Below, piece after piece: positions 3,773 to 53,276 of a stretch of 64,000 bases of DNA. The stretch covers positions 17,051-81,050 of the forward strand of contig CAJBBX010000063.1 of assembly GCA_903951425.1 (NCBI GenBank), given 5' to 3'. Each line of letters begins with the position of its first letter. Position 1 is the stretch's first letter. Position numbers and translations under genes: made by a program. The notes under the pieces are model-generated. The model was not told where the DNA came from. It did no database searches and saw only the letters and a program-made list of their open reading frames with translations. Source of the stretch: an uncultured Chthonomonas sp. (lineage in GTDB: Bacteria; Armatimonadota; Chthonomonadetes; Chthonomonadales; CAJBBX01).

Positions 3773-3929
3773 CCCTCCCAGTCGGCCTCTTGCCGGTACG
3801 CCGGGTGTTTGGCCGCGGCGGGACCGGATTCCTGCGCCGAAACAGGACAACGAGGCGAACTGGGCGAATATGGCCGCAACCAGCAATGCAGCGCGGCACG
3901 CAAGCCGCCCGCGCCTCAGGAGCGATCGA

Positions 3930-16963: not shown

Positions 16964-17216
16964 AGCCCGAACATGGTACCCCACCGGGTACGGCGGGGAG
17001 GAGACGAGGGGGTGAAGGGTGCAACGGCGAGGCGGGCAAGGGGATCACTTCTCTGCCGCAGGAAGGCGCTCCCCTTGAGTCCTTCGACGTTTGGGGTGAA
17101 GCCCTGAACTGACACACCGGCATCCGGCAACCGACGCGCCGGCGTTGCCCGGCACGGGCGAAGCACCCGTAGGTGGATCGGCGCCGTCAGCCCGGCCGGC
17201 GCCGTTCTGGCCCTCG

Positions 17217-19578: not shown

Positions 19579-20052
19579 ATGATGAAGACGCTTGCAGCGC
19601 TGATCGCCTTCGGCGCCATCTGCACTGCCGCTTACGCCGGCCCAACGACCAAGTCCAAGGCCGCCAAGGACGCTTGTGGCTCGTGCCCGTCGGCCGCAGC
19701 CGCCAAGAAGACCAACGCTCAGTGCCCATCAGCCAAGGCCGACTGCGCCACCTGCCCGTCAGCCAAGGCTACCGCCAAGTCCGACTGCGCCACGTGCCCG
19801 TCCGGTTCGGCCGGAGCCTGCCCCGTCAGCGGCGGCAAGCTCACTTCCGTGAAGTGCGGTGAAGGCTCCAAGAAGATCGACGTCGCCAAGCTCACTGCCG
19901 AGGGAAAGTACGCAGACTACAAGGGCAAGCGCTACTTCTGGGCTTGCGACCACTGCGCCAAGGACTTCAAGGCCAACCCGGCCGGGTACGCCAGCCGGCA
20001 CACCGGCTTCATGGTGAAGACCGCCAAGGTCAGCTCCAAGGCCGCCAACTAG
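19579..20052 (+). CDS. Secreted Cys-rich protein with CxxCPSAKA-type repeats and C-terminal YHS/TRASH-like domain
   Basis: Trimmed to ATGATG at 19579, with CAGGAG 10 nt upstream. The signal peptide is MMKTLAALIAFGAICTAAYA. Repeats are CGSCPSA, CPSAKAD, CATCPSAKA and CATCPSGSAGACPVSGG. The C-terminal motif YKGKRYFWACDHCAKDFKANPAGY resembles the YHS motif Y.G..YYFCS..C...F...P..Y. Confidence 0.7.
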   Translation: MMKTLAALIAFGAICTAAYAGPTTKSKAAKDACGSCPSAAAAKKTNAQCPSAKADCATCPSAKATAKSDCATCPSGSAGACPVSGGKLTSVKCGEGSKKIDVAKLTAEGKYADYKGKRYFWACDHCAKDFKANPAGYASRHTGFMVKTAKVSSKAAN

Positions 20053-20082
20053 GCCCTCAGCCGCTCCAGCCTGACCCCATCG

Positions 20083-20120
20083 CCCAGGACCGGCCCCGCG
20101 CCGGTTCTGGGCTTTCTGCT
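20083..20120 (+). terminator. Intrinsic terminator after the Cys-rich protein gene
   Basis: A 12-bp stem cccaggaccggc / gccggttctggg (one G-U pair) with a 5-nt loop, followed by CTTTCTGCT. It abuts the next gene's ATG at 20121. Confidence 0.5.
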
Positions 20121-24284: not shown

Positions 24285-24390
24285 GGCGGCCTCCCGTAGT
24301 GCGCGGTCACGGCGCACGGTCTGTGAGAGTTCGACGTCGGAGGCGAGGGCTCCTGCATGTGTGATGATGAGGGGGGTGAAGGGGCCGGCG

Positions 24391-38228: not shown

Positions 38229-40691
38229 CTACTGGTAGGCGAACTCGCCGCCGGCCACCGACCAGTCGTTGCCGAAGAAGCCCGCCGCACGCACGCCCGA
38301 CGCGCCCTTCAGGAGGCTCTCCGCGGACCAGAGCAGGAGGTCCGGCAGGCCCGCGCCGGAGACGAAGATGGGCGCCCTGCCGGTGAGCCGCATGCCTGCT
38401 AGTCCGGTGCCTCCCACCACGGCCACGGACGCCACCGCCGAGCCTGGCCGTGGCCGCATGAAGAGGCAACCCAGGTCCTCGCCGCTCCACGTGCGCCCGT
38501 CCAGCGCGGCCGATCCGCGGCGCACCTGCATGGGCGAAGCGGAGAGCAGCGCGGGCCAGGCGGCGTTGGTGTCGGCGTTGCCGTACAGGACCACGCCCCG
38601 GTCGCGGTCACGGTCGGCGCGGAACTCGCTGTCCGGCAGCATGTCCACGGCGCCGTTGCCTCGGTACCACCAGGTTTCGGCGTCGAAGCGGGCGCGGGCG
38701 AAGGCCCATGCGTTCTCATCAGGAGTGCCCTTGGTTCCGTAGACCAGCACGAACCGGTGGTTCCAGGCGTGGCGGTAGGGCCCACAGCGAGCCGGTCCCT
38801 TGGCGTCGGCGGAGAGCGGCCCGGCCTGGAACCAGCCGGCGGGGCCCTTCTCCAGCGCCAAGGCAACCGCCCCGGCCGCGACCACGACCTCCTGCTTGCC
38901 GCCGTCGAGGTCCAGCGTCACCTTCTCGCCGGGGGCCAAGCCACCGAGGTCGAAGTCCATGCGCCGGACGTTCTCGGTCGTCCCCACAAAGCGGCGCACG
39001 GCAGGGTCGCGCCTAATCCGGGCGCGAGCGGGGAGCATCTGGCGCTGAGCCTGCTCAATGGTGAGCCAGCGCATGCGGCTGGAGGTCTCGGGGTTCATGG
39101 TCGTGAAGTCGACCGACCGCACGCTCTCGGCGGCCGGGATGGTCCGGCGGGCGAACAGGTCGAAGATCGCCGGCCAGTCGACGCAGCCAGCTCCGGGATC
39201 GCTAGCGGCGCCCCACCAGTGGCCCGCGCCGGGCTGCTCGTAGAGGGTGTAGTCCTTGTGGAAGCCCGACAGCTCCTGGGCCATGCGCCGGGCCTCGGTG
39301 ACGGGCACGTTGTCGTCAGCATCGCCATGCAGGATGTAGACGCCCAGGTCGCGCAGGTTCGGCGCCAGCGTCAGGGTGTCGCCCTCTGCCGAGGCGCGGC
39401 GGAGCGTCTCCTCCACGGGCGTGGGATTGTCAAAGCGGCTCCCGCCGCCGTAGGAGACGAAGCTAACCCACCCGGCGCTGGGAGCGATGGCCGCGAACCG
39501 GTCGGGGTAGGTGACACCGTTGATCCAGGTGCCGTGGCCGCCCATGCTGTGGCCGGTCAGGTAAATGCGCGACGGGTCAGGCTTCACCTCGTTGGTCGCC
39601 AGGCGCAACACCTCCATGGCGTCCAGACGTCCCCACTCCTCCCAGTCGAAGCCGTAGGGGCGGCGGTTGGTGGGCGCGGCGAGGTTCAGCCAGGTCTTGG
39701 CGGCGTAGGAGTCGGCCTGGCCGATGCCCTCCACGGAGGCGCCGTGGAGCGAAAGCGCCAGTCCGGGCCGACGCGCGCCCACATCAGCGCCCGGTGTGGC
39801 CGGGTTGAGGGCGTAGTACTGCACGCTCCCGTCGATTTCGCTGATGAAGGTGACCTTGCGCGTCTGTGCAGGCGTTCGGACCCGAAGCCCAAACTCGCAC
39901 GGCGCGGAGGGCTTGGGGCCGCCCTCCAGCTTGACCAGAACCTTAACTGAGCCCGTGCCTGAACCGTTCCATGCGATGTCGAACGGGACCTTACGCGCCG
40001 AGAAGGGCGGCACCGGCGGCACGGTCCGCTGGGTGGATGAGAGGCCGCTCCCTGTGGCACGAACCACGGCGCCGCGGAGCCAATGGCCGGCGGCGTTGAT
40101 CACAAGCGCCGCACCCAGATGCTTACCGCGCTTTCCAGCCACCAGATCGGGAAGGGTCGGGTCGGCGCCGTCGACGTAGGCGGGCGCGGCCGGCTGACGC
40201 AGAGCTACGCGAACCTGCCCTCGGGCGCCCTGAAACAGCAGGTGGTTGTCGCCCTGCTTCAGCTGCACAGGCACGCGAAGCCAGCCGAAGCCATAGGGGT
40301 CGCCGCCACGGGGCTCGCCGTTGACGATGGCCATGGAGTGCCCCGAGGCCTCCAGGATGGCCACCCGCTCGGCCGGCGACTTGAGGCATAGGTAGAGGTA
40401 GCCACCTGCCATCTCGTCGCCGCCCACGCTACCATTGGCGGGCAGCGTTATCTGCTTCCAGGCGCGCTCGCCGCCCGACGCGCGGGGGACCGTGTCACCT
40501 GCGGCCGGAGGGCGCCATGCGCCGGTGACGATCTGGTGCATCAGCGCGTCCTGCACGATGGCGTTGCGGCCCGCACGGCCGATGGGGCCGATGACCCACG
40601 CCTTTTCGGGCAATGGGAGCGCATCCTGCGCCGCCGCCCCGCACGTCGATAGCGCTCCCGCCGAAACCGCCAGAAGCCGAAGTCCCCTCAT
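38229..40691 (-). CDS. Secreted alpha/beta hydrolase of the prolyl-oligopeptidase (S9)/esterase type with large flanking domains
   Basis: Trimmed to the ATG at 40691 (MRGLRLLAVSAGALSTCGAAAQD). The nucleophile elbow is LTGHSMGGHG, with HGDADDNVP and AGHWW downstream. Confidence 0.8.
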   Translation of the reverse strand: MRGLRLLAVSAGALSTCGAAAQDALPLPEKAWVIGPIGRAGRNAIVQDALMHQIVTGAWRPPAAGDTVPRASGGERAWKQITLPANGSVGGDEMAGGYLYLCLKSPAERVAILEASGHSMAIVNGEPRGGDPYGFGWLRVPVQLKQGDNHLLFQGARGQVRVALRQPAAPAYVDGADPTLPDLVAGKRGKHLGAALVINAAGHWLRGAVVRATGSGLSSTQRTVPPVPPFSARKVPFDIAWNGSGTGSVKVLVKLEGGPKPSAPCEFGLRVRTPAQTRKVTFISEIDGSVQYYALNPATPGADVGARRPGLALSLHGASVEGIGQADSYAAKTWLNLAAPTNRRPYGFDWEEWGRLDAMEVLRLATNEVKPDPSRIYLTGHSMGGHGTWINGVTYPDRFAAIAPSAGWVSFVSYGGGSRFDNPTPVEETLRRASAEGDTLTLAPNLRDLGVYILHGDADDNVPVTEARRMAQELSGFHKDYTLYEQPGAGHWWGAASDPGAGCVDWPAIFDLFARRTIPAAESVRSVDFTTMNPETSSRMRWLTIEQAQRQMLPARARIRRDPAVRRFVGTTENVRRMDFDLGGLAPGEKVTLDLDGGKQEVVVAAGAVALALEKGPAGWFQAGPLSADAKGPARCGPYRHAWNHRFVLVYGTKGTPDENAWAFARARFDAETWWYRGNGAVDMLPDSEFRADRDRDRGVVLYGNADTNAAWPALLSASPMQVRRGSAALDGRTWSGEDLGCLFMRPRPGSAVASVAVVGGTGLAGMRLTGRAPIFVSGAGLPDLLLWSAESLLKGASGVRAAGFFGNDWSVAGGEFAYQ

Positions 40692-40813
40692 GTGCCACCT
40701 CCGCTGTAGTTGCTGTCGCCGCGTCCTATCGCCGCAATGCACGTACCGCCGACCGGACGGCGTTGGAGCGCCGGCCACTTCGGCGGTACCCTAACGCACC
40801 GGCCAATGGCCGC

Positions 40814-42907
40814 ATGGAGGATACCGTGCAGACGCCCGTCTCTCGCACCCTGGGAGGAGTTGCCATGCTTGCCGCGCTGCAGATGCCCGCGCCCGGGCAG
40901 GCGCCCTACGTCCGGGCCTACCCCGACCTGCGCCCTCTGGCCGATAAGACGCTGGTGGCGTGGGTCACTCCCGCCAACGTGACCCAACGGGGCGGCAGCG
41001 TACTCACGCTCGAATGCAGCGAGAGCTTCGACGGCATCGTCTTCGGCGAGATCAAGCCCGGCGCGTGGATGACCGGCAGCGAGCTATTCCGCCGCACGCA
41101 GTCCGACCAAGGCGCTTACCCGGCGGAGGCGGCGACGGGCAAGGGCCCCATCCGCGTGGCCGCGGTCTATCGGGGCGAGCAGGTGACGCTCTACCGCAAC
41201 GAGCAGGTGTTGGCTTCGTACCGCATGGCCAACCCGCCGCTGAAGCCCGGCTCCGGCTCGCACGTCCTCATCGGGCTACGGCACCGCGCACGGCAGGGGC
41301 AGCCGAACAGCTACTTCGCGGGCACGGTGGACGAGGCCCGCGTCTACGCCTCCGCGCTTTCGCCCGAGGACCTGGCACAGGTGGCGCTCGGGAAGCCGGG
41401 CGGCCCAAAGCCGCTGGCCCGCTGGACCTTCGAGGATGCGAGTTGCCGAGATGCCGAGGGCGCCTTCCCGGCCGGCACACTGCACGGCGGGGCAAGGGTG
41501 AGCGGCGGCAGGCTGATCCTAAACGGGAAGGACGCGTACATGTCCACACCTGCCGGCCGCGTCTGGCAGACCGCCTTCCACTTCAGGCCCAAGGCCGGCA
41601 ACTTCGCCGACCCGATCCCCTTCTTCTGGAAGGGCGAGTACCACGTCTTCTACCTGCAGGGCGATGCGGGGCTGGTGCCGTGGCAGCACATCGTCAGCCG
41701 CGATCTGGTCCACTGGAAGGAGCTGGCCACGGCGCTGGTGAGCGACGGCGCGCCCGACAGCCCCGACGGCGGCCACATGTTCACCGGCTCCGTCATGGAG
41801 CACGCCGGCACGTTCCACATCTTCTACACGGGCCACAACCCCGGCAACCCCGCCGCGCTGGAGGTGGTGTGCCATGCCACCAGCAAAGACCTGATCCATT
41901 GGAAGAAGCAGCCCGGCTTCACCGTGGGACCGGACGGCGTCCGGTACGCCGAGAAGCGGTTCCGCAACTGGCGCGACCCATTCGTCTGCTGGAACCCCGT
42001 GGCCCGCAAGTGGTGGATGATCGTCATCGCCACCGATCCCAAGGAGCCCGGCGGCGAGAACGAGTTCGGCCGGGCCGTGCAGGGCCTGCTCAGCTCTAAT
42101 GACCTGGTCACATGGAAGGCCGAGCCGCCCCTGCCCGGCGGCCTCGGCGAGGAGTGCCCTGACCTCTTCGAGATTGACGGAGTCTGGTACCTCCTGGGCG
42201 GCGGCCGCTACGTCTCCGGCGCGGCGCCGGGCGGCCCGTACACAACGCCGCCGCACGCAGTCATCGACTTCCCGGGCGTCTACGCCGGGAAGCGCATGTT
42301 CGACGGCAAGCGGCACATCTGGGTCGGCTGGGCATGGGACGGCCCCAACCAGACCGACGAGGCCGTCGCCGGACAGGGTGTGCTGAGCTGGGGCGGCTTC
42401 ATGTGCCTGCCGCGGGAGCTCTACCCCGGCGGCAAGGGCGAGATCTTCTGCAGGCCCGCCGCCGAGATCGCGGCGCTCCACTCGCGACCGGTGGCCCAGG
42501 CCGGACCGGCCACGCCCACAGAGGTGGCCCTAACGTCCGACGGCATGGTCGAGTGCGTGGCCCGCATCGAGGCCGGCGCCGACCTGACGCTGACGCTCCG
42601 CGACCAGTGCGACGGCAGAGCCTATCGGCTCACGGTGCAGCCGAACAAGGGCCGCATCACCCTGGCGACGCCGAAGTCGGAGTGGCATCGCGACGGGTGC
42701 AGGATCGACGCCACAAAGCCCGTCACCTTGCGCGTCTTCCTCGACGGCTCCATGCTGGAGTGCTTTGTGAACGACGCCTATGCCATCAGCCGCCGGGTCT
42801 ACGACCTGGAGGGCGGCAAGGCTCGGGTGCAGTCATCGGGCAAGCTGACGGTCGAGACGCTGCGCCTCATGGGCATTGCCGGCGCACCGCCCATGGCGGC
42901 GCCATAG
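40814..42907 (+). CDS. LamG (concanavalin-like) domain fused to GH32 beta-fructofuranosidase-like catalytic domain
   Basis: Start at ATG 40814. The LamG tail motif is YFAGTVDEARVYASALSPEDL. GH32 motifs are FHFRPKAGNFADPIPFFWKGEYHVFY (the WMNDPNG position), WRDPFV (RDP) and GEECPDLF (EC). Confidence 0.8.
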   Translation: MEDTVQTPVSRTLGGVAMLAALQMPAPGQAPYVRAYPDLRPLADKTLVAWVTPANVTQRGGSVLTLECSESFDGIVFGEIKPGAWMTGSELFRRTQSDQGAYPAEAATGKGPIRVAAVYRGEQVTLYRNEQVLASYRMANPPLKPGSGSHVLIGLRHRARQGQPNSYFAGTVDEARVYASALSPEDLAQVALGKPGGPKPLARWTFEDASCRDAEGAFPAGTLHGGARVSGGRLILNGKDAYMSTPAGRVWQTAFHFRPKAGNFADPIPFFWKGEYHVFYLQGDAGLVPWQHIVSRDLVHWKELATALVSDGAPDSPDGGHMFTGSVMEHAGTFHIFYTGHNPGNPAALEVVCHATSKDLIHWKKQPGFTVGPDGVRYAEKRFRNWRDPFVCWNPVARKWWMIVIATDPKEPGGENEFGRAVQGLLSSNDLVTWKAEPPLPGGLGEECPDLFEIDGVWYLLGGGRYVSGAAPGGPYTTPPHAVIDFPGVYAGKRMFDGKRHIWVGWAWDGPNQTDEAVAGQGVLSWGGFMCLPRELYPGGKGEIFCRPAAEIAALHSRPVAQAGPATPTEVALTSDGMVECVARIEAGADLTLTLRDQCDGRAYRLTVQPNKGRITLATPKSEWHRDGCRIDATKPVTLRVFLDGSMLECFVNDAYAISRRVYDLEGGKARVQSSGKLTVETLRLMGIAGAPPMAAP

Positions 42908-42928: not shown

Positions 42929-45223
42929 ATGAGACAGGCTCTCGCAGCCCTTGCCGCCCTCGGCGCAGCCCTGCAGGCCGGCGCCGAAGTGAAGCCCGCC
43001 GCGCCACTCCAGGCGCTGCCGTTCCCGCCGGGCCAGGTGAAGCTGCTGCCCGGCCCGTTCCGGCACGCCCGCGAGCTGGACCGGAAGTATCTGCGTAGCC
43101 TAGCGCCAGACCAGCTCCTGCACACGTTCTGGCTGAACGCGGGCATCGCGTCGACCGCGAAGCCGCTGGGAGGTTGGGAGGCGCCGGAGTGCGAGCTGCG
43201 CGGCCACTTCGTGGGCCACTACCTATCGGCCTGCGCACTCCTCGTCGCGGCCGATGGCGACGCAGTCCTTGGGCGTAACGCCGCCGCAGTGGTCGCCGGC
43301 ATGGCCGACTGCCAGGCGCGGATCGGCACCGGCTACCTGAGCGCGTTCCCGGATAGCTTCATCGACCGCGTGGACAACCGGCAGCCGGTCTGGGCGCCGT
43401 GGTACACGCTGCACAAGGTGCTCGCAGGCCTGGTCGACATGCACCGACTGGCCGGCAACCGACAGGCGCTGGCCGTGGCGACCGGGTTCGCGGACTGGAT
43501 CGACCGCCGGTACGCCGCTATGCCCGACGACCGCATGCAGGCCATGCTCGGCAATGAGCACGGCGGCATCTCCGAGGCGCTGATCGAGCTCTACGCGGCG
43601 ACCGGCGAGCCCAGGTACGGGGCCCTGGCCAGGCGGTTCGAGCACCACGCCCTCCTCGACCCGGCCGCGGCAGGCCGCGACACGCTCACGGGCCTCCACG
43701 CCAACACCCAGATACCCAAGTTTGTCGGCGCGGCCCGGGAGTACGAGCTGACGGGCGATCCGAAGCTCCGCAAGGCCGCCACCTTCTTCTGGAGCAGCGT
43801 CGCCAAAGAGCGGTCCTACGTCATCGGCGGCCACTCCGACGGCGAGATGTTCACGGCCAAGGAGCGGCTGTCGCAGGCGCTTGGCCCCAACACCACCGAA
43901 ACCTGCAACACCTACAACATGCTGAAGCTCACCGGCCGGCTCTTCGGCTGGGAGCCCTCGGTCGTCCTGGGCGACTTCTACGAGCGGGCGCTCTACAACC
44001 ACATCCTCGCCTCGCAGAACCCCGAGACCGGCATGATGTGCTACTACGTGCCGCTACGTAGCGGCGCCCGCAAGGCCTTCAACGGCCCGCTGGACAGCTT
44101 CTGGTGCTGCACAGGCACGGGCGTGGAGAACCAGGTCCGCAACCATGAGGGCATCTACTACCGGCGCACGACCGACGATGCGCTCTATGTGAACCTCTTC
44201 ATCGCCTCGCAACTCACATGGAGCGGGCGCGGCGTGAGCGTCACACAGGCCACGCGCTTCCCCGACGGGGCGGCCTCCACGCTGACGCTCCGATGCGCGA
44301 AGCCGACGGCCTTCACCCTCCGCATCAGGCGACCCGCCTGGTGCCGGGGCTTCGCCTTGCGGCTGAACGGCAAGCCTGGCGGCGCGGTGGTCGGCCCCGA
44401 CGGCTACGCGGCCATCCGCAGGACGTGGAAGTCGGGCGACACCGTGCAGATCTCGCTACCCATGTCGCTCAGGACCGAGGCCTTCCGCGACAACCCGAAC
44501 CGGCTGGCCTTCCTCTACGGTCCCATCGTCCTCTGCGGCACAGCGCGCGCTGAGGGCATCTTCCCGGCTGTCGTCACGCCGCCCGCCGGGACCGCGCGAG
44601 GCTGGACGCCCGTGCCCGGCAAGGCTATGACGTTCCGCTCCGCCCCCGGCGCCTTCCGCGTGCCGGGCGCCGAGGCGCCGGTCACGGTGACGCTGGCGCC
44701 GTTCTTCCGGGAGTACAAGGAGCGGACCATCGTCTACTGGGACCGCTTCACAGAGGATCAGTGGCGGGCGCGCGCAGCCGCCTACCGGACCCAGCAGGAG
44801 CAGCTACGAGCTCTGGAGGCGCGAACGGTGGACGTGGTGCGCCCCGGCGAGGAGCAGAATGAGCGTGACCACAAGCTGGCGGGTCTGAACCACGGCTCCG
44901 GCGACTTCGGCGACCGCAAGTGGCGGCACGCGCCGGATGGCTGGTTCTCCTACGAGGTTAAGGTGCTGCCCGGCCTGGCGCAGGGCCTCTCCTGCACCTA
45001 CTGGGGCAGCGACGTGGGCCCGCGCACCTTCGACATATTGATTGACGGCAAGCTGCTCACCACTCAGACGCTCAACCGGAACCGGCCCGAGGTCTTCTAT
45101 GACGAGACCTACCCGCTTGCGCCGGAGATGCTCGCCGGCAAGGAGCGCATCACCGTGCGGTTCCAGGCCGGGCCGGGCCGCACCGCGGGCGGGCTCTTCG
45201 GCCTACGCATCCTGAAGCGCTGA
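42929..45223 (+). CDS. GH127 (DUF1680) beta-L-arabinofuranosidase-like
   Basis: AAGGAG lies 7 nt upstream, and a signal peptide is present. Motifs are LRGHFVGHYLSA, WAPWYTLHKVLAGL, NEHGGISEAL, HANTQIPK, GGHSDGE, ETCNTYNMLKL and FWCCTGTG. Confidence 0.85.
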   Translation: MRQALAALAALGAALQAGAEVKPAAPLQALPFPPGQVKLLPGPFRHARELDRKYLRSLAPDQLLHTFWLNAGIASTAKPLGGWEAPECELRGHFVGHYLSACALLVAADGDAVLGRNAAAVVAGMADCQARIGTGYLSAFPDSFIDRVDNRQPVWAPWYTLHKVLAGLVDMHRLAGNRQALAVATGFADWIDRRYAAMPDDRMQAMLGNEHGGISEALIELYAATGEPRYGALARRFEHHALLDPAAAGRDTLTGLHANTQIPKFVGAAREYELTGDPKLRKAATFFWSSVAKERSYVIGGHSDGEMFTAKERLSQALGPNTTETCNTYNMLKLTGRLFGWEPSVVLGDFYERALYNHILASQNPETGMMCYYVPLRSGARKAFNGPLDSFWCCTGTGVENQVRNHEGIYYRRTTDDALYVNLFIASQLTWSGRGVSVTQATRFPDGAASTLTLRCAKPTAFTLRIRRPAWCRGFALRLNGKPGGAVVGPDGYAAIRRTWKSGDTVQISLPMSLRTEAFRDNPNRLAFLYGPIVLCGTARAEGIFPAVVTPPAGTARGWTPVPGKAMTFRSAPGAFRVPGAEAPVTVTLAPFFREYKERTIVYWDRFTEDQWRARAAAYRTQQEQLRALEARTVDVVRPGEEQNERDHKLAGLNHGSGDFGDRKWRHAPDGWFSYEVKVLPGLAQGLSCTYWGSDVGPRTFDILIDGKLLTTQTLNRNRPEVFYDETYPLAPEMLAGKERITVRFQAGPGRTAGGLFGLRILKR

Positions 45224-45235
45224 CGAGGGTCGGAC

Positions 45236-48200
45236 ATGATCCATGTTCTCGTGTATGTGATGGCGCTCATCTCCGCTGCCGGTCTGGCGCAGGGGCCGAC
45301 CGCCGGGCGACGCGACGGCATGGTGCGCGTACCGGGCGGGACCTTCACCATGGGCGCGGAGGTGGCCGATTGCCCGGACGCTTACCCGCGACATCAGGTA
45401 ACGCTGCGCCCGTACTGGATCGACAAGTGCGAGGTGACGCAGGCCGAGTACGCGGGGTTCTGCCGGGCGACGGGCCACACGGCGCCCATCACATGGCGCG
45501 GAGGGGCGCCCCAGCCGGGACGGGAGCGGTGGCCGGTGACCAACGTTACCTGGCACGATGCAGATGCTTACGCCGCATGGGCCGGCAAGCGGCTACCCAC
45601 CGAGGCCGAGTGGGAGTACGCCGCGCGATCGGCGGACGGCCGCACCTACCCGTGGGGCGAACCCGCGCCCAAGGGCATGGCCGCGCTGGAGGACGAGCCG
45701 GCGCTGGGCTCCGTGGGGCGGTTCGTGGCTGGGGCCTCGCCGTTCGGATGCCTCGACATGACCGGCAACGTCTGGGAGTGGGCCCAGGACTGGTACGGCC
45801 CCTATCCGGAGACGGGACCGCGCACCGACCGGGCCACCCAGGCCATGGGCCCGACGGTCTTCTCGCCGCTCTCAGTCCACTACGGCCGCAAGTACAAGGC
45901 GCTGCGGGGCGGCGGGGCCATCGGCTACTACGGCGCACCCAACCTGGGCAGGACCTTTGACCGAGGCAGGGCCGTTCCCTACGGGTGCTACGACGGAACG
46001 GGCTTCCGCTGCGCGGCAGACGACGAGTCCCGAGCTCCGCGGACGGCCGACGGGGCCCAACCCACGCGCGTCCGGCACGCTCCACGGGTCGTCGCCATGC
46101 CGCCGGCGAAGGCCTCAGTGCCGCTCACGATCACCGAGGAGGCCGGTGTGCGGCGCGACGGTGAGATTGTCCGTAGCGGATTACCCTTCCCGCAGGGCTA
46201 CCTGAAGGACGTCGGACGACTGGCGCTGGTCGGGACGAACCGACAGCCCGTGCCGCTACGCGCATCCATCACCGACCGATGGCGCGACGGTAGCGTGCGT
46301 TGGGCCCTGCTGGAGTTCCCCACAAGCGTGGGCGCGAGCGCGACCGCCACCGTGCGGCTGGAGACGAACGCCCCCGCACGACGGCGCGCGCCGATGCCGC
46401 AACCGACCGCTGCACTCCGGGCGGCCCTCGGCGCGGTCCGATGGCGGGTCGCGGCGGATGGCCGGACCCAGACCGTGCAGCCTCGCCCCGGCGACGCCGC
46501 CATCGGTCCCATCACGTTCGGGACAGGTGATCCCCTGTTCCAGTTGGCATCGCAACAGCGCCTCTGCTCAGCCGACGGCGCGGCCGTCGACATCACAGCC
46601 ACGCTGACGCGACGCGGCGCCGCCGCCATGGCTTCGCTGACGGGCTGGCAGATGGAGATTGAGCTACCGGCCACGCCCGTGGCGGCCATGCTCGGCAACT
46701 CGAACGGCGGCATCCGGCTTGCGGGCAGGGCTGCGTCCTCATTGCTGCTTGAGCAGATCGACTCTGAGACCTGCCGCGTGCGTGTTACCGGACGTCCCGA
46801 CGTCGCATGGACCCGAGCGCCGGGCTGGATCGCGCTTCGCTGCGGCGACCGGTGGATCGGCATCGCCATGGAGGAGTTCTGGCAGCAGGCCCCCGCCACG
46901 ATCAGGGTCGAAGGCCGGCGGCTCAACATCGGTTTCGACGGGAGCCGCGAGGCCTTCGAGGCCGACCGAGGCATCGCCAAGACGCTCCGTTTCCGCATTG
47001 CTGCCCATGCCGGTCTGGAGGCTTGCGTCGAGCGGCTGAAGGCCCTGCAGGCGCCGCTCATGGCAGTGGCAAGCCCCGAGTGGAACTGCGGCTCCAGAGC
47101 GCTGGGAGACCTGGCCCCCTATGACCTGGACCGCTTCCCCACCTACGAAACGCGGGTGGCCGCCGAGTTCGACCGGTGGATTCGCAAGCGGCCCTACGGG
47201 TTCCGGAACTGGGGCGACGCCTACATGGGCGGGCCATATAAAGGCAAGAACGCCTACGCCAACCTCGAATACGACATTCCGTATGACTTCGCCATGCAGT
47301 TTGCACGGACCGGCAACCTCCGCGTCCTGCGGGCCGCCATCGCCACGGCGAGGCACCAGGCCGATATTGACACGAACCATGAGACAGGCCTGCCGTGGAA
47401 ACACAGCCCGCGGCACACCGAGACCGAGGCCGAACTGGGCCATGTCTTCGTGCGCGGCCTCATCGCCTGGTGGCATCTGACCGGCGACCGGCGCGGCCTC
47501 GACGTGGCCCACCAGATCGGACTGCGCATCGCCGACGACCTGGTACACAACCGCGGCGTAGGCAACGAGCGCCAGATCGGCTGGAGTCTCTACGCGCTGA
47601 CGGCCGTCTACGCGGCCCACGGCGACGAGCGCTGCATTGCGGGCATCCGGACACTGGTGGACCGCCTCTGGGCGGGTCAGGAGCCCACAGGCAGGTTCGC
47701 CATCCGCTACGACAACCGCATCGCCTTCTTCAACGGCCTGGCCATGGCCGGCCTGCGCGAGGCCTACGACGCCACCGGCGACGAGCGCGCCGCCACCATG
47801 GCCCTGCGTCTCGCCGAACGCACGCTGGGCTTCCGCCCGGAGTACGCCGGCCGCACACTGGATAGCCTGGCGTGGGCCTACGACCGCACGGGTGACGCCC
47901 GGTTCCTCGACAACGCGGAGCGCACCTGGGAGACGACGCAGGAGTACCTGGGCACGCGCCAGTGGGGACCCGACAGCACGCTCTTCGCCACCCGCTACCT
48001 GCCATTCCTGAAGCGCCTCGGCATGGCGCCGATGGGCAAATCCCCACTGTGCCTCACGCCGGCGCAGTGCGACACCGCCAATGGGCTCTACCTGACGCAT
48101 CTGGCGCGGCCATCCGCCGGCGTGGCAATCCTGGACAGGACCGGCAGGCCATTCCGCATCGCCATCATACGCCACGGCAGTCTGGACCCGGCGACCTGCC

Positions 48201-48766
48201 TTCTCACGGCCACAGGACGCACGGTGGCCCTCATCCGGTTCGGCGCCTCGCCGGAGGCAGGCGTGCGCCGGACCGTGCGCGTGCCGGCAGGCCCGTCGGG
48301 GCGCGTGCTGCGGCTGGCCCTGACCTCGAAGCAGTCGCAGGGATGGGATATCGTCACCGACAGGGCGATGCCGCGGGTCGTGGAGGTCGCGGACCTGGGG
48401 ATTCTCGACCGCCTCGTGCCCCGCGTCTTCTGCGCCGCCACGGGAAAGCGCATCCGCCTGACACTCAGGGCCAAGGGCGAGGGCTTCCACGGAGCGGTAA
48501 TCAGCCGGCCCGACGGATCGATCGCGGCGCTGGGCAGGCGCTTCGTTGACTTCGGCGACAACGCCGCCTACACCTTCACGGTGGAGGCGCCCGTCCCCGC
48601 CGGTGTGCGCGGTAGGCTGTGGCAGGTGGACCTGCAGGACGCCGAGGTCATCGCCGCCGAGGGCCTCGCCGCCCACGCCGCCTGCAGCCGGGCCGCGTGG
48701 TTCGCGGTCCCGGCTGCGCGGGGCTCGCGCTACTCCCGGCAGATCACCCGGAAGCCCACGTTGTAG
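45236..48766 (+). CDS. Secreted fusion: N-terminal FGE-sulfatase (SUMF1-like) domain plus large PcRGLX/YetA-like domain
   Basis: The signal peptide is MIHVLVYVMALISAAGLA. The FGE-type block is MVRVPGGTFTMG, VTNVTWHDADAYAAWAGKRLPTEAEWEYAAR, TGNVWEWAQDW and GFRCA. Downstream, RWRDGSVRWALLEFP and NWGDAY..NLEYD..HQADIDTNH resemble the PcRGLX-like RIFT-barrel and (alpha/alpha)6 region. That second assignment is tentative. Confidence 0.8.
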   Translation: MIHVLVYVMALISAAGLAQGPTAGRRDGMVRVPGGTFTMGAEVADCPDAYPRHQVTLRPYWIDKCEVTQAEYAGFCRATGHTAPITWRGGAPQPGRERWPVTNVTWHDADAYAAWAGKRLPTEAEWEYAARSADGRTYPWGEPAPKGMAALEDEPALGSVGRFVAGASPFGCLDMTGNVWEWAQDWYGPYPETGPRTDRATQAMGPTVFSPLSVHYGRKYKALRGGGAIGYYGAPNLGRTFDRGRAVPYGCYDGTGFRCAADDESRAPRTADGAQPTRVRHAPRVVAMPPAKASVPLTITEEAGVRRDGEIVRSGLPFPQGYLKDVGRLALVGTNRQPVPLRASITDRWRDGSVRWALLEFPTSVGASATATVRLETNAPARRRAPMPQPTAALRAALGAVRWRVAADGRTQTVQPRPGDAAIGPITFGTGDPLFQLASQQRLCSADGAAVDITATLTRRGAAAMASLTGWQMEIELPATPVAAMLGNSNGGIRLAGRAASSLLLEQIDSETCRVRVTGRPDVAWTRAPGWIALRCGDRWIGIAMEEFWQQAPATIRVEGRRLNIGFDGSREAFEADRGIAKTLRFRIAAHAGLEACVERLKALQAPLMAVASPEWNCGSRALGDLAPYDLDRFPTYETRVAAEFDRWIRKRPYGFRNWGDAYMGGPYKGKNAYANLEYDIPYDFAMQFARTGNLRVLRAAIATARHQADIDTNHETGLPWKHSPRHTETEAELGHVFVRGLIAWWHLTGDRRGLDVAHQIGLRIADDLVHNRGVGNERQIGWSLYALTAVYAAHGDERCIAGIRTLVDRLWAGQEPTGRFAIRYDNRIAFFNGLAMAGLREAYDATGDERAATMALRLAERTLGFRPEYAGRTLDSLAWAYDRTGDARFLDNAERTWETTQEYLGTRQWGPDSTLFATRYLPFLKRLGMAPMGKSPLCLTPAQCDTANGLYLTHLARPSAGVAILDRTGRPFRIAIIRHGSLDPATCLLTATGRTVALIRFGASPEAGVRRTVRVPAGPSGRVLRLALTSKQSQGWDIVTDRAMPRVVEVADLGILDRLVPRVFCAATGKRIRLTLRAKGEGFHGAVISRPDGSIAALGRRFVDFGDNAAYTFTVEAPVPAGVRGRLWQVDLQDAEVIAAEGLAAHAACSRAAWFAVPAARGSRYSRQITRKPTL

Positions 48767-51700
48767 ACGGTCTGCCACGGGGCGTAGGACAGGCGGTACG
48801 AGGCCGTGCAGCGGGCCGGACGGTCGTACCAACTGCCGCCGCGCACGACTCGCTCGGCGGCCGGGTCCGTGGCCGCATCGCCGCCGCCGGGCCGCCGCGT
48901 GTAGACCGAGCGGGTCCATTCCGCCACGTTCCCGTGCATGTCGTGCAGCCCCCAGGGGTTGGGCGCGAAGGAGCCGGCATCGGTCGGCAGCAGGGCGCCG
49001 TCGCTGAAGCGCGTCTCCTTGGGCGACCAGTCGAGCAGCGGGTCGGGGTTGGCCACGGGCTTCGGATCGATGCCCGCCACGGCCAGCGCGGTGAGGCTCT
49101 GGTCGGCCATGTTGGCCGCCCGGCCGAAGTCTGTGTCTAGTCCGCCGAACCAGAAAGGCCCCGCGCTGCCCGCCCGGCAGGCGTACTCCCACTGCGTCTC
49201 TGTGGGCAGGTCGAACTTGAGGCCCGTCTTCCGGCTGAGCCAACGGGCGAAGCGGTCCGCCTCGGCCCAGGTGACCCGGACAGCAGGCTGGTTCGGGCGA
49301 TCCATTGGGTAACCGCGCGAGGTGTGGTCCTTGTTACGCATACCGATGACGCCGTTGTCGTGCCGCGGATCGAAGCGGGCATACTGGGCGTTGGTCGTCT
49401 CCGTGACGGCCATCCAGAAGCCCTTGTCCACGCGCCGCGCGGCCATGGGACGCTCGTCCAGCGCGCCGTTGTTCGACCCCATGACGAAGGCGCCCGGCGG
49501 CACGTAGGTGAGCCGCAGCTTCACGCCGTTCCCAAGGTCAACCACGCGCGAAGCCCTGTGGGACGCCCGCTTGCGCGCGGCGACGTCGGGTCCGAAGGGC
49601 CATCCGGCGGGATTGGCCTGGGCAGGTTGCGCAGGCGCCTCGGGCATGGGTGAGACCTCAGCCGACGGCGGAAGATCGGGCGGCATGGCCTCGTGGTCGA
49701 TATCCGAGCCGCCGTACTTCTGTGCCAGCTCCATCATGCGGCGGTTGCGCTCAGGCGCGGCGCCGTTCTGCGCGGTCCAGGTACCGTGGCACGGCACGTT
49801 CAGGTCGATCCAGGTGTAGAGGCGGTCCCAAGCCTCGGGCGCCAGCTTCACGCCGTGGTGGCCCTTCTTCAGCATCTGAACCAGCTCGCTGGTGCCGGCG
49901 TCCCACTCGCGCGGGCGCTGCAGGTGGTAGTCGCTCTCGTTGCCGGGGCGGCGGACGAAGCGGTGCAGGGCCTCGTAGGCGGGCGTGAAGGCGCCTCGGT
50001 AGTTGGCCACGGCGGCGCGGGCACGGAGGTCCGGCCGCCCTGGGGTCCCGCTGTGGCAGCTGACGCAGTAGCGTTGCAGCACCGGAGCCTGTACCTCGCG
50101 CTCGAAGCCGAAGCCACGCGCTGGACCGAACCAGGGCGCGATCTTGGCCGGGACCATCCCCTCGGGCCGGGGCCGCCGCAGGCCGGGGGCGCTGCTCTGG
50201 GGCTCGTGGCAGCCCTGGCAGGTGGCGAACTCGCCGGGCATGGCCGTATACCAGGAGCGCATGACCTGAAGCGCCTTGCCCTCGGCGTCCAGCGGCTGCA
50301 CAACCAGCGGCAGGTTCGCCGGCGCGGTGAAGAGGGCCGAACCACGGGAGTTCACCGGCACGGTGCCGAGAATGCGCTTAACGTCCCAGGGGCCGTCGAT
50401 ACCTACATTCACATGACCGCCCATGCCGCGGTAGCCGTAGTGGTTGGCGTAGACGCGCAGCGACTTCACGGTTCCGCGCGGCACGCCCTTGAGGCCCGGT
50501 CCGCGGTAGACGTCAGCCAGGAAGATGGTGGCGCTCTTCTGGGCGACCTTGGCGCGGTCGGGCGTGGCCGGCGGCATGGGTCGCGCCATCACAGGCACAG
50601 GCTCCAGCAGCGCGTATCCAGGCTCCTCGGCCAGGCAGACGAGGTTGTCGAACACGTCGGCCAAATAGATGCCCCAGGGCCGCCCGGCGGGCTGGCACGA
50701 GACGAGGAAGTACTTCTCGCTGAGCGGGAAGGGGTGCAGGAAGCGAGGCGAGGTCGTCTCAACCAGTTGGTCGCGGATGATCGGATCCACTCGCTTGCCG
50801 AAGCCGGGCACGCGCTGCACCACGCCGGACGCCTCGTGGCGGCCGCGGGCAGGGTCGAGTACCATCAGTTCGCCCATGCGCGGCACGCCGTGGTGGCCCG
50901 AGACGATGGCTGTGAGCTTGCTGGGATGGCCGGGCACGGGCCGCGCATAGAAGAGCGAGTTGGGCCAGAAGCTGTTGGACCCATACTCCTCCATCTGGTT
51001 GGAGCCGTCCGGGTTCATCTTGAAGAGCAGGCGCGAGAAGTAGTGCGGCGTGTCGCTGTACTCCCACCGGGTGTAGAGCACCTGGCCGTTGTTGAGCACG
51101 CGCGGGTACCAGCTGTGGTCCTGGTCGTAGGTCAGTTGCCTTGCCGAACCCGACTTCGGGTCGAGGAGGTAGAGCGAACCGACCGAGTCGCCGCCGCCCA
51201 CGCAGGGCACGCCGATGTAGCAGGCCGTGGAGCAGTAGACGATGCGGCCGTCGGGCAGGTAGGCGCCGCTGTAGTTGTCCACATCCGGCTCTTCGCCCGG
51301 TGTCACCTGTCGCGGCTCGCCGCCCTCCGTCGGCATCTCGAAGAGCTGGAAGCGGTCGTGCGTGCCAGGCATGGATAGGAGGAGGCGCCGGGCGTCCCAG
51401 TGCGGCTCCAGATCGCCCACGAAGGCCCCGCCCTGCGGCTGGTAGACCACCGACCGGGCGCCAGTGGCGATAGAGAGCCGCTCGATGCGGTTATCGTAGC
51501 CCCGTGCGGGGATGGAGGAGTTCCCCTGCCAGTTCTGCGGCAGGCCCATCAGCTTCTCGGACCGGCGCACGAGGAGCAGTTTGTCGAACCGGAGTAGCGG
51601 GTTCGCCAGCAGGGCCTCGCGGCGCAGGGCGGCCAATTCGGCTACGGCGGCATCGCGGCCTCCTTCGGGCCCCTTGGTGATCGCCGCGCAGAGGCTGTCG

Positions 51701-52362
51701 ATCCTGGCCAGGTAGGTGGCGCCCTTCGGGTAGCCCGCGCCATGCTGGGCCATCAGGTCGCGGACCGCGCGGCGCAGGGCCGGCACCGGGAAGCCCGCCA
51801 CGGCGGAGACGGGATCGATGACATCGCCCGCCGAGGCATCGCCGTCGAGCCGGAAGAAGAACCCCGAGCCGCCCGAGATGTTGTAGACCTTGGCCAGCAG
51901 CCGGTTCTCGCCCGTCCGGAGCGGCAAGGCCAGGCTGTCCTGGTCAGGCGCGGTCACTCGCGGCACATCGTTGGCCAGGAGGCGCACGCCGTTGAGCCAG
52001 ACCGCCAGTCCGTCATCGCTGCCGAACCGCGCCATGACCGTGCGCGCCGCAGGCGAGGTGATGGTCCGCATCAGGTAGGCGGAGCCGTTGTCCGGCAGGC
52101 CCAGATCGTGCGATTGGCCGTCCGGCATGTCGCGCTTCACCCAGCTGACGCCGGCCACGGGCTCGGCGCACGAGACCGAGCGCTCCGGCCCGAACTCCAC
52201 GGCGAAGCCCCGCCCCTCGGTAGGCGTGAACGGCCCGGCCACGTACCAGGAGCCCATGGTGAGCGTTGGCTTTGGGGCCGCCGGGCGCTTCGCGGGCTTC
52301 GGCGCCGCCAGCATGGAAAAGAGGGCGACAGTCGCCGCGATGCAGGCCGAACGAACTAGCAT
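48730..52362 (-). CDS. Secreted 1210-aa multidomain protein: PA14-like, HzsA-like beta-propeller/middle region, two CxxCH motifs, C-terminal FGE-sulfatase-type domain
   Basis: ATG at 52362 with GGAG upstream, and a signal peptide. The PA14-like block is FGSDDGLAVWLNGVRLL...NRLLAKVYN. CQGCH lies at 50206-50220 and CVSCH at 50053-50067. The C-terminal block is YVPPGAFVMGS, VRVTWAEADRFARWLS, LPTETQWEYACRAG, HGNVAEWT, RGGSW and GFRV. Confidence 0.85.
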   Translation of the reverse strand: MLVRSACIAATVALFSMLAAPKPAKRPAAPKPTLTMGSWYVAGPFTPTEGRGFAVEFGPERSVSCAEPVAGVSWVKRDMPDGQSHDLGLPDNGSAYLMRTITSPAARTVMARFGSDDGLAVWLNGVRLLANDVPRVTAPDQDSLALPLRTGENRLLAKVYNISGGSGFFFRLDGDASAGDVIDPVSAVAGFPVPALRRAVRDLMAQHGAGYPKGATYLARIDSLCAAITKGPEGGRDAAVAELAALRREALLANPLLRFDKLLLVRRSEKLMGLPQNWQGNSSIPARGYDNRIERLSIATGARSVVYQPQGGAFVGDLEPHWDARRLLLSMPGTHDRFQLFEMPTEGGEPRQVTPGEEPDVDNYSGAYLPDGRIVYCSTACYIGVPCVGGGDSVGSLYLLDPKSGSARQLTYDQDHSWYPRVLNNGQVLYTRWEYSDTPHYFSRLLFKMNPDGSNQMEEYGSNSFWPNSLFYARPVPGHPSKLTAIVSGHHGVPRMGELMVLDPARGRHEASGVVQRVPGFGKRVDPIIRDQLVETTSPRFLHPFPLSEKYFLVSCQPAGRPWGIYLADVFDNLVCLAEEPGYALLEPVPVMARPMPPATPDRAKVAQKSATIFLADVYRGPGLKGVPRGTVKSLRVYANHYGYRGMGGHVNVGIDGPWDVKRILGTVPVNSRGSALFTAPANLPLVVQPLDAEGKALQVMRSWYTAMPGEFATCQGCHEPQSSAPGLRRPRPEGMVPAKIAPWFGPARGFGFEREVQAPVLQRYCVSCHSGTPGRPDLRARAAVANYRGAFTPAYEALHRFVRRPGNESDYHLQRPREWDAGTSELVQMLKKGHHGVKLAPEAWDRLYTWIDLNVPCHGTWTAQNGAAPERNRRMMELAQKYGGSDIDHEAMPPDLPPSAEVSPMPEAPAQPAQANPAGWPFGPDVAARKRASHRASRVVDLGNGVKLRLTYVPPGAFVMGSNNGALDERPMAARRVDKGFWMAVTETTNAQYARFDPRHDNGVIGMRNKDHTSRGYPMDRPNQPAVRVTWAEADRFARWLSRKTGLKFDLPTETQWEYACRAGSAGPFWFGGLDTDFGRAANMADQSLTALAVAGIDPKPVANPDPLLDWSPKETRFSDGALLPTDAGSFAPNPWGLHDMHGNVAEWTRSVYTRRPGGGDAATDPAAERVVRGGSWYDRPARCTASYRLSYAPWQTVYNVGFRVICRE

Positions 52363-52465
52363 TGGGGGATACTCCAGCGGTCAATGGGTCTGCCGCCTAG
52401 TTCGCCGCGGGCGGCTTCGGTTCCTGCCCGATGCGCTGCAAACGCGCCAGAGGTAGAATGCCGGT

Positions 52466-53092
52466 ATGGACCGCGATAAGAACCCTCGGCCCTCTTCCAT
52501 GGCCCGCTACACCCGCCGGCGCGAATCGATGCCCGGCGTGCTGGCGGAGCTCATCCGGAAGATGGACACGGGAGGGAGGATACGCGAAGCCATGGCCATG
52601 GCTCACTGGGCCGAGGCCGTGGGGCCACGCGCCGCCCAGTCGTCGCGAGCCGAGCGGGTCCAGAACGGCGTGCTGCACGTCTGCACCAAGAGCGCCGCCT
52701 GGTCGCAGGAGCTGGCACTGCACAAAGTGCGCATCCTCCGGGCCATGAACGAGCGCGTGGGCAAGGGCGTCCTGACGGACATCCGGTTCCGCGCCTCGGG
52801 CTTCAAGGCCCCTCCGCCGGCGCCCGAGCCCGAGCTGATCCCCACCGAGCAGGAGCTGGCCGCCCATCCCCCGACCCCGGAGGAGACCGCCGGCATCGCC
52901 GCAGCCGTAGCCGCCATCGAAGACCCCGCCCGCCGGGCCCGTGTGGCCGACGCCCTGGCGCACCAGATCAGCCTCCGCCGCTGGCGCATCGGCCATGGTT
53001 GGCGGGTCTGCCCCATCTGTAACAGCCTTTATCTCACCGAAGGCCCCCGCTGCCAGCTCTGCACCATCACGAGGCGCAAGGCGGGCAGGTAG
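52466..53092 (+). CDS. DUF721 (DciA-like) protein with C-terminal zinc-ribbon
   Basis: The DUF721 core is AMAHWAEAVGPRAAQSSRAERVQNGVLHVCTKSAAWSQELALHKVRILRAMNERVG. The C-terminus carries CPICN..(9)..CQLC. ATG 52499 and ATG 52529 are alternative starts. Confidence 0.7.
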   Translation: MDRDKNPRPSSMARYTRRRESMPGVLAELIRKMDTGGRIREAMAMAHWAEAVGPRAAQSSRAERVQNGVLHVCTKSAAWSQELALHKVRILRAMNERVGKGVLTDIRFRASGFKAPPPAPEPELIPTEQELAAHPPTPEETAGIAAAVAAIEDPARRARVADALAHQISLRRWRIGHGWRVCPICNSLYLTEGPRCQLCTITRRKAGR

Positions 53093-53276
53093 GGGCTTCC
53101 TGCGGTACAGCGGACCGCCACAATCTGGCTCCACGATAGACGCAGGCGAGCTGTGTGCGCCGCACGGTATGGCGAGACATATCCATCTCCTCAGCGATGC
53201 CGCGCTTCGGCTGTCCCATCCACAGCCGATACGCGATGTCCACAATGAGCTCCACCTCCAGTCGCTCCATCGGCAC
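53067..53276 (-). CDS. Small putative helix-turn-helix protein (possible remnant)
   Basis: 69-aa ORF. The HTH-like segment is KRGIAEEMDMSRHTVRR. It overlaps the DUF721 gene's 3' end antisense by 26 nt. I see no RBS. Confidence 0.3.
   Translation of the reverse strand: MPMERLEVELIVDIAYRLWMGQPKRGIAEEMDMSRHTVRRTQLACVYRGARLWRSAVPQEAPTCPPCAS

Follow-up and report, generated by a model that had tools for sequence, protein, structure and literature searches.

A cysteine-less FGE-type module joined to a PcRGLX/YetA-like body in a putative exported glycan-cleaving enzyme of an uncultured Chthonomonas sp.

What does the fold of a formylglycine-generating enzyme (FGE) do at the front of a protein whose body resembles a polysaccharide lyase? 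The question is raised by a gene on contig CAJBBX010000063.1 (assembly GCA_903951425.1) of an uncultured Chthonomonas sp., in a window of 64,000 nucleotides (nt; positions 17,051 to 81,050 of the forward strand) with a G+C content of ~70% throughout. The gene, at 45236..48766 of the window on the + strand, is an uninterrupted open reading frame (ORF) with an ATG start, and encodes a predicted secreted FGE-like/PcRGLX-like fusion protein of 1176 amino acids (aa). Our preferred answer, to which we give a probability of about 0.55, is that this protein is an exported glycan-cleaving enzyme resembling those of polysaccharide lyase family 26 (PL26), probably an exo-lyase acting on a complex acidic glycan, with the Cys-less FGE fold as a binding or cleft-forming partner. 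We found no report of a fusion between an FGE-sulfatase domain and a PcRGLX-like body in the literature searched, in agreement with a sequence-only reading of this stretch that had seen no description of it.

The ~890-aa C-terminal body belongs to the PcRGLX/YetA (PL26-like) superfamily as a divergent member. The Pfam model PcRGLX_1st (PF19501) matches aa 315-373 (E 2.7e-6; 27.5 bits vs. a curated cut-off of 22.1) and is found in 31/31 family members, with PcRGLX_2nd (PF21345) in 25/31. Searched against the PDB as a single sequence, the body gave nothing useful; family profiles reached PcRGLX at E 3e-15 to 5.4e-30 over chain residues 20-623. With 70 sequences as input, AlphaFold2 (AF2) gave a model of aa 285-1176 (pLDDT 90.6, pTM 0.93) that consists of an N-terminal beta region, a toroid of helical hairpins, and a C-terminal beta-sandwich. 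In a Foldseek search of the PDB with this model, the top ten matches were all PcRGLX chains (5XQ3_A at E 1.5e-21, 873 columns, TM 0.53, 13-14% identity). The next match, the PL27 lyase BACCELL_00875, was 13 orders of magnitude weaker, and cellobiose 2-epimerases and enzymes of glycoside hydrolase (GH) family 127 matched the toroid only. Alignment of the family with bacterial YetA-like proteins by hhalign gave a probability of 100% and E 2e-81 over 651 columns, the blocks GD, N.[EQ]YD, RTG, and H..[DE].D..H being common to both.

PcRGLX itself, the exo-rhamnogalacturonan lyase of Penicillium chrysogenum (PL26; 5XQ3/5XQG/5XQJ/5XQO), has the same domain order as the body from the RIFT barrel to the C-terminal beta domain, and shares with the family the blocks W.DGS.(K/R)W, G.A(K/R)T.E, GD, N.E, RTG, and RH..[DE].D..H. 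Enzymes of the PcRGLX type in PL26 cleave rhamnogalacturonan by beta-elimination, starting from the reducing end. In the Chthonomonas protein, the RIFT barrel (aa ~300-376, 46133..46363, +) carries the PcRGLX_1st match, aligns to PcRGLX residues 20-80, and contains RWRDGSVRWALLEF at aa 348-361 (46277-46318). The central beta-sandwich (aa ~377-592, 46364..47011, +), the region of the PcRGLX_2nd matches, is all-beta in the AF2 models. The alpha/alpha toroid (aa ~593-930, 47012..48025, +), which we presume to be the catalytic domain, is recognized from its helical hairpins in the AF2 model, from Foldseek, and from hhalign to the YetA-like proteins. Its invariant blocks are GD (aa 660-661), GGPYKGKNAY (47228-47257), NLEYD (aa 676-680, 47261-47275), HQADIDTNH (aa 707-715, 47354-47380), WKHSPRHT (47396-47419), and GNERQIGW (47561-47584). 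The C-terminal beta-sandwich (aa ~950-1150, 48083..48685, +) is formed by AF2 strands at 953-1149 with pLDDT >90, lies inside the 873-column Foldseek alignment to 5XQ3, and contains a GEGFH motif (48476-48490). The GGPYKGKNAY loop (aa 665-674) is near-invariant in the family yet has a pLDDT of 50-66 in both AF2 models, and may be a mobile active-site loop.

The sequence-only reading had quoted several of these blocks and associated the ~900-aa remainder with a PcRGLX-like architecture. The quoted blocks lie where it placed them and are true superfamily signatures that align to both PcRGLX (counterparts 'YWADGSLKWTA', 'NSELS', and 'RHTGEVDVYH') and the YetA-like proteins (counterparts 'WPDGSVRWALLDF', 'NNQYD', and 'HVEDIDIYH'). 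The architecture is borne out by AF2, Foldseek, profile searches, and hhalign, which recover the RIFT barrel, beta-sandwich, and toroid and add the C-terminal beta-sandwich. The concern that the C-terminal region might have no lyase- or hydrolase-like fold is answered by the 873-column match of the body model to PcRGLX. In an exhaustive search the tight family proved small (~14 clusters at 50% identity), and the superfamily around it comprised 911 representatives at E <= 1e-10, rising to 2575 at E <= 1e-3. Sampled members of this superfamily (P0204-P0338) are 700-1600 aa long and combine PcRGLX_1st/2nd with a toroid that matches the GH127 or PcRGLX_3rd (PF21346) models no more than weakly, some of them being fused to LamG; the weak PF21346 matches come from the more distant members only.

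The N-terminal module keeps the FGE fold. An FGE-sulfatase domain (SUMF1-like, C-type-lectin-like; PF03781, E 1.6e-49) occupies aa 27-260 (45314..46015, +). It is preceded by the N-terminus MIHVLVYVMALISAAGLAQG (aa 1-20, 45236..45295, +), a probable Sec signal peptide judging from its hydrophobic helix and AxA-like end; homologues have similar N-termini, and this region has pLDDT <50 in the full-length AF2 model, which over all 1176 aa reaches a pLDDT of 88.2 and a pTM of 0.91. The closest PDB sequence relatives of the module are true FGEs (E 9e-27), and the WAGKRLPTEAEWEYAARG, GNVWEW, RGG, and GFRC blocks of FGE are all present, GNVWEW (aa 177-182) being the retained Ca-site motif. NCBIfam gave sub-threshold matches only (EgtB, SenA, GldK, and PvdO), all attributable to the generic fold. 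A 16-aa insertion in the ETGPRTDRATQAMGPTVFSPLS region of the domain (aa ~191-212, approximately 45806-45871; pLDDT 54-61) is limited to the closest clade of the query (P0002, P0003, and P0004).

The copper site of this module is lost. FGE (SUMF1) carries two Cu(I)-binding Cys in a CxxxxC arrangement after the RGG motif. In the query, ALRGGG stands at aa 222-227, and in the alignment with Streptomyces FGE the segment 'RGGSYLCHDSYCNRYR' falls opposite 'RGGGAIGYYGAPNLGR', with both Cu-binding Cys replaced, by Gly and Pro. The CxxxxC pair is found in 0/73 aligned fused family members, while Y232, which falls between the positions once occupied by the two Cys, is invariant (73/73) and N236 is present in 67/73. 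No ORF among those scanned in the window matches the type I sulfatase model PF00884, nor was a match found among 84 neighbors of homologues at the top-25 family level; the single case encountered lies downstream of the FGE-less P0130. Because the Cys pair is absent throughout and the scanned window ORFs include no sulfatase gene, the residues of the module indicate that it cannot be a Cu-dependent maturase. A working FGE fused to a glycan-degrading enzyme would explain why the best PDB relatives are genuine FGEs, why JGI and NCBI automatic names read FGE or SUMF1, and why one FGE-less homologue (P0130) has a sulfatase gene downstream. Against these stand the 73/73 replacement of both Cys, the lack of a sulfatase gene among the scanned window ORFs, the predicted export of the module together with the body, and the PL26-like partner, which as read from its sequence has no CxPxR motif; we regard a sulfatase maturase here as highly improbable. 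The module shares its fold with FGE/SUMF1 (6MUJ, 2Q17, and 1Y1E) without sharing the Cu-binding Cys, and in that loss resembles the inactive FGE paralogue pFGE/SUMF2 (1Y4J). FGE acts on sulfatases, whereas this module has a glycan enzyme as its fused or coupled partner.

Whether the joining of the two parts is real was addressed by its recurrence. A whole-protein search returned ~35 relatives that are full-length (1150-1270 aa), share the Pfam content of the query, and are assigned by their sources to Phycisphaerae, Planctomycetota, Armatimonadota, and others, and a search with the body only gave ~90 clusters, ~70 of them with an FGE domain. The public protein collection holds an identical copy of the 1176-aa protein (P0001) and one 84% relative. 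In a genome scan with one genome per species, 39 loci encoded a relative, all of them in metagenome-assembled genomes (MAGs) of Armatimonadota/Chthonomonas (92 and 86% identical to the query), Planctomycetota, and Verrucomicrobiota. The target ORF was called in 38 of these 39 loci: 32 fused, four full-length without the FGE domain, and two truncated. At L005, the MAG locus 92% identical to the query, simple ORF calling yielded no target ORF. The fused ORFs have linkers of 35-50 aa, that of the query (aa 261-299, 46016..46132, +) being poorly conserved (mean pairwise identity 33%) and modeled at pLDDT 48-70.

Since the fusion recurs in ~70 clusters, in independent assemblies, and in three phyla, it is not an assembly or frameshift artefact, a concern that the sequence-only reading had itself raised. 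One observation could be turned toward an artefact: in one clade the parts are truly separate, overlapping genes, where a single-base error could mimic a fusion. The ORF is nevertheless continuous across those clusters, the fused forms have no internal signal peptide of the kind found in the split body genes, and the AF2 model is continuous, so that two genes joined by error are scarcely conceivable as an explanation.

FGE-less relatives are 950-1006 aa long and pass from their own signal peptide directly into the RIFT barrel, and neighbor-joining on the body groups them as a single clade that is nested among the fused forms. At three Verrucomicrobia loci of this split clade (L008, L011, and L013), a secreted FGE-like gene of the 250-aa class lies directly upstream on the same strand and encodes a protein 46-48% identical to the FGE domain of the query. 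The TGA stop of this FGE-like gene shares bases with the ATG of the body gene in the sequence AAATGA, and a GGAGG-like motif lies upstream. The metagenomic loci P0124, P0146, and P0147 likewise have an upstream FGE-sulfatase gene with a 4-nt overlap with the body gene, bringing the count to 6/7 assessable split-clade loci. Adjacent and with overlapping stop and start codons, the split FGE-like and body genes are translationally coupled. At P0147 (JGI 3300048101), the most basal split-clade member, the upstream FGE-like gene was called as two pieces of 118 and 99 aa, which may reflect a frameshift or decay of the partner. At the P0130 locus (L045 5921-7720), a type I sulfatase gene (PF00884) lies 44 nt downstream of the body gene.

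Within the 73 fused members, mean pairwise identity was 59.5% for the FGE module, 55.0% for the toroid, and 35-37% for the beta-sandwiches. The distance matrices of the FGE module and the toroid correlate at r = 0.85, a value similar to the correlations within the body, which indicates one old fusion followed by co-inheritance of module and body. Because the module is conserved to the level of the toroid, is co-inherited with the body, and is supplied by a coupled upstream gene where the two are split, these results suggest a constant, possibly integral, subunit-like partner instead of a loosely appended binding module.

This bears on the role that the sequence-only reading had assigned to the module. 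Its observations hold: a secreted SUMF1-like domain is present at the N-terminus (Pfam FGE-sulfatase at aa 27-260 after a signal-peptide-like start), no CxxxxC follows ALRGGG (both Cys being replaced relative to Streptomyces FGE and the pair occurring in 0/73 members), and its view that the fold is not that of a sulfatase maturase agrees with the loss of the Cys pair in 73/73 members and with the scanned window ORFs. The lectin-like or accessory role that it favored is not established, the toroid-level conservation, co-inheritance, and coupled split gene pointing instead to the constant and possibly integral partner described above. The features that argue for carbohydrate binding by the module are the C-type-lectin-like fold class and the retained GNVWEW motif only. 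FGE-type C-lectin folds are ligand-binding scaffolds in the variable proteins of diversity-generating retroelements (DGRs; PMC5758913), and FGE folds serve as binding or structural modules outside sulfatase maturation in DGR variable proteins, PorK/GldK, PvdO, and EgtB (PMC5758913, PMC12421860). Our PDB matches to the module include TvpA (2Y3C), PorK/GldK (9MZU), PvdO (5HHA), and the C-domains of EgtB/OvoA. None of TvpA, PorK/GldK of the T9SS (type IX secretion system), PvdO, or EgtB/OvoA is tied to a polysaccharide lyase or hydrolase, and all are less similar to the query than true FGEs.

The same conservation could be read as a sign that the module is itself catalytic, or that it lends a residue such as Y232 to a composite active site in a two-component enzyme. 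In EgtB/OvoA, an FGE-like domain shares an active site with another domain, a precedent for such an arrangement. The module is conserved like the toroid, Y232 (73/73) and N236 (67/73) lie at the former FGE active site, the body has no equivalent of the PcRGLX catalytic-loop Tyr, the split genes are translationally coupled, and the full-length model has a pTM of 0.91. Most of the invariant module residues, however, are general fold residues also present in true FGEs, one split-clade member (P0130) has no adjacent partner, and the wide occurrence of FGE-like domains as extracytoplasmic modules on kinases, caspase-like proteins, and TIR proteins fits a binding role better. We therefore consider a catalytic contribution of the module improbable. 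A more specific proposal, in which the FGE fold is an integral second component that docks over the toroid pocket and contributes part of the active site, with Y232 as a candidate to stand in for the Tyr of the PcRGLX loop, is in our judgment doubtful; if true, such a composite site would put the FGE fold to a new catalytic use and define a new CAZy family of two obligate parts, fused or split.

The presumed key residue of PcRGLX emerges when its wild-type chain is compared with that of 5XQO in HMMER output: the substrate-complex chain differs from the wild type at a single position, 437 ('ITYEDW' vs. 'ITFEDW'). Tyr437 is presumed to be the catalytic tyrosine because a Tyr-to-Phe change was used to trap the substrate. 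Within the query toroid, the invariant residues are D661, E678, Y679, D680, H707, D710, D712, K722, H723, H727, H736, N777, E778, R779, R824, D826, N827, R828, Y870, and R873, and this conserved, basic pocket, in which His, Asp, Arg, and Lys abound, suggests a site that would suit an anionic sugar.

Several points weigh against our preferred reading of the protein as a PL26-like lyase with a constant FGE-fold partner. The Tyr437 loop (~25-40 aa, between 'LWLYSPAAEPLDL' and 'GIARTSE') is extra sequence in PcRGLX as compared with this family and the YetA-like proteins, and the query segment at the counterpart site in the central beta-sandwich, IGFDGSREAFEADRGIAKT (46928-46984), contains no Tyr, in an alignment that at 14% identity is uncertain in this loop. 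Because Tyr437 has no counterpart in the query, the PcRGLX catalytic arrangement may not apply here. Identity of the body to PcRGLX is as low as the 13-14% of the Foldseek alignment. Of the Pfam models that the sequence-only reading had named for a check, FGE-sulfatase, PcRGLX_1st (31/31), and PcRGLX_2nd (25/31) match the family; PcRGLX_3rd (PF21346) matches 0/31 members and none of the FGE-less members tested. P0130 (L045) is the only split-clade locus without an adjacent FGE-like gene, the defined docking of the module on the body is suggested by the single model value of pTM 0.91, and the gene neighborhoods vary too widely beyond the FGE-body pair to define a substrate. What the comparisons support is thus a shared PcRGLX architecture; with PcRGLX_3rd not matching and the Tyr437 counterpart missing, they do not establish that the protein belongs to PL26 proper or acts as a lyase. 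PcRGLX is fungal, has the Tyr437 loop, and has no FGE module, whereas the query family has the module and not the loop. The bacterial YetA-like proteins (~22% identity to the family) also are without the Tyr loop and have the toroid signature H..D.D..H in common with it, and no FGE module or FGE-like neighbor was noted in the outgroups examined. YetA of Bacillus subtilis is encoded beside the rhamnogalacturonan gene cluster.

If the body is not a lyase, it could be a glycoside hydrolase with a six-hairpin (alpha/alpha)6 domain and Asp/Glu chemistry related to GH88/GH105/GH127, with the role of the FGE partner unchanged and D661, E678, D680, D710, D712, E778, and D826 as candidate acids. The only Pfam matches to catalytic domains are of this kind, the GH127 catalytic domain (aa 780-898, E 5e-6, just over the cut-off) and GH88, both weak and in the toroid. 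One FGE-less homologue is named 'glycoside hydrolase family 127 protein' by NCBI, the family has no counterpart of the Tyr437 loop of PcRGLX, the toroid blocks are lined with many acidic residues that do not vary, and the operon partners of the target are all glycoside hydrolases. The GH127 match, though, covers generic hairpins, a lyase is far ahead of every other relative in both structural and profile comparisons, the Arg/Lys/His-rich pocket is what would be expected of uronate-binding lyases, and GH105 genes, whose products would consume those of a lyase, adjoin the body gene in three loci. Taken together, we treat a hydrolase as a tentative alternative and think it rather unlikely. Membership of GH127 in particular was rejected. 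Catalysis in GH127 uses a Cys nucleophile within a Cys3-Glu zinc site; in the family alignment no Cys of the body is invariant or nearly so, which means that this Cys/Zn site is absent, and the Pfam match spans positions 59-204 of the hidden Markov model only. The GH127 enzymes HypBA1 and BT3674 have the six-hairpin toroid in common with the body (Foldseek E ~1e-4) and differ in their N-terminal domains.

In the PL26-like reading that we prefer, the gene product would be an exported two-part carbohydrate-active enzyme whose body cleaves an end of a complex glycan that is acidic and contains uronate, with beta-elimination, the reaction of PcRGLX, as the most likely mechanism. The products would feed nearby unsaturated-uronyl hydrolases of the GH105 type and furanosidases (GH127, GH172, and GH32). 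The FGE-fold module, without a redox function, would be docked on the body as its constant partner and either recognizes the substrate, by C-type-lectin-like binding, or helps shape the active-site cleft.

The gene neighborhood is compatible with such a pathway. The ATG of the target lies 12 nt past the stop of the preceding gene, with GAGGG a few bases upstream. That preceding gene (42929..45223, +) encodes a GH127 beta-L-arabinofuranosidase-like protein with a DUF6805 domain (Pfam E 4.8e-122) and follows, after a 21-nt gap, a gene for a protein with Laminin_G_3 and the N and C domains of GH32 (40613..42907, +). The three genes form an apparent operon in which the target is third, and GH127 genes are also neighbors at L006 and L018. 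Near the target, the window also has one GH95-like and one GH2 gene, together with other genes for hydrolases or esterases. For the homologues, 223 neighbors were clustered and Pfam was run on 84. The recurrent ones were DUF2961/GH172 (five loci), YteR-like GH105 (three loci), GH127 (three to four loci), and LamG, PA14, and GFO/IDH/MocA proteins, an enrichment that is loose. The GH105 neighbors match YteR, an unsaturated rhamnogalacturonyl hydrolase, at E 1.4e-39. Because GH105 enzymes consume the unsaturated products of lyases, these neighbors lend modest support to beta-elimination on a uronate-containing glycan. Together, the GH105, GH127, GH172, and GH32 neighbors suggest a complex acidic glycan as substrate; a theme like rhamnogalacturonan II (RG-II) or arabinogalactan protein (AGP) is possible and is not demonstrable from neighborhoods.

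The component folds of this protein are known, and what is new here is the split Verrucomicrobia gene pair and a conservation of the module that matches that of the toroid. FGE-sulfatase domains without the Cys pair are very common in bacteria (in kinases, caspase-like and TIR proteins, and T9SS rings), most of them without a known role. Three phyla retain the pairing, either fused or as an overlapping gene pair, and for this reason the FGE fold seems to have been recruited as the constant partner of a glycan-cleaving enzyme. The fusion and its coupled split form tie the fold to a defined enzyme class, offering a tractable system for the function of Cys-less FGE domains. Database names such as 'formylglycine-generating enzyme', 'SUMF1/EgtB/PvdO family nonheme iron enzyme', and 'GH127' are now misleading for these proteins. 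PcRGLX is the only superfamily member with a solved structure found by our searches, and the branch to which the body belongs is large and uncharacterized; a substrate and mechanism for it would probably found or extend a CAZy family, and would help to annotate the breakdown of glycans better in Planctomycetota, Verrucomicrobiota, and Armatimonadota.

A second FGE-type domain is encoded next to the target. The convergent gene at 48730-52362 (-) overlaps the 3' end of the target by 37 nt and encodes a protein of 1210 aa with HZS_alpha as its middle domain (aa 630-720), a weak match to cytochrome c, and a C-terminal FGE-sulfatase domain (aa 953-1207) that likewise has no CxxxxC ('RGGSWYDRPARCTASYR'); a counterpart of this gene is also a neighbor at the Chthonomonas MAG locus L006. 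Elsewhere in the window, the interval 19944-22040 encodes a glucuronyl-esterase-like/AXE1-like hydrolase, 22044-24317 (-) a DUF4838 protein, 27163-29064 a DUF6785/DUF6784 membrane protein, and 1253-4165 (-) a second GH2-like protein. Two ORFs, one of 974 aa downstream of the GH2 gene (59677-62601, +) and one of 282 aa (52397-53245, -), had no Pfam match at E <= 0.01 and may encode further unclassified glycan-related proteins.

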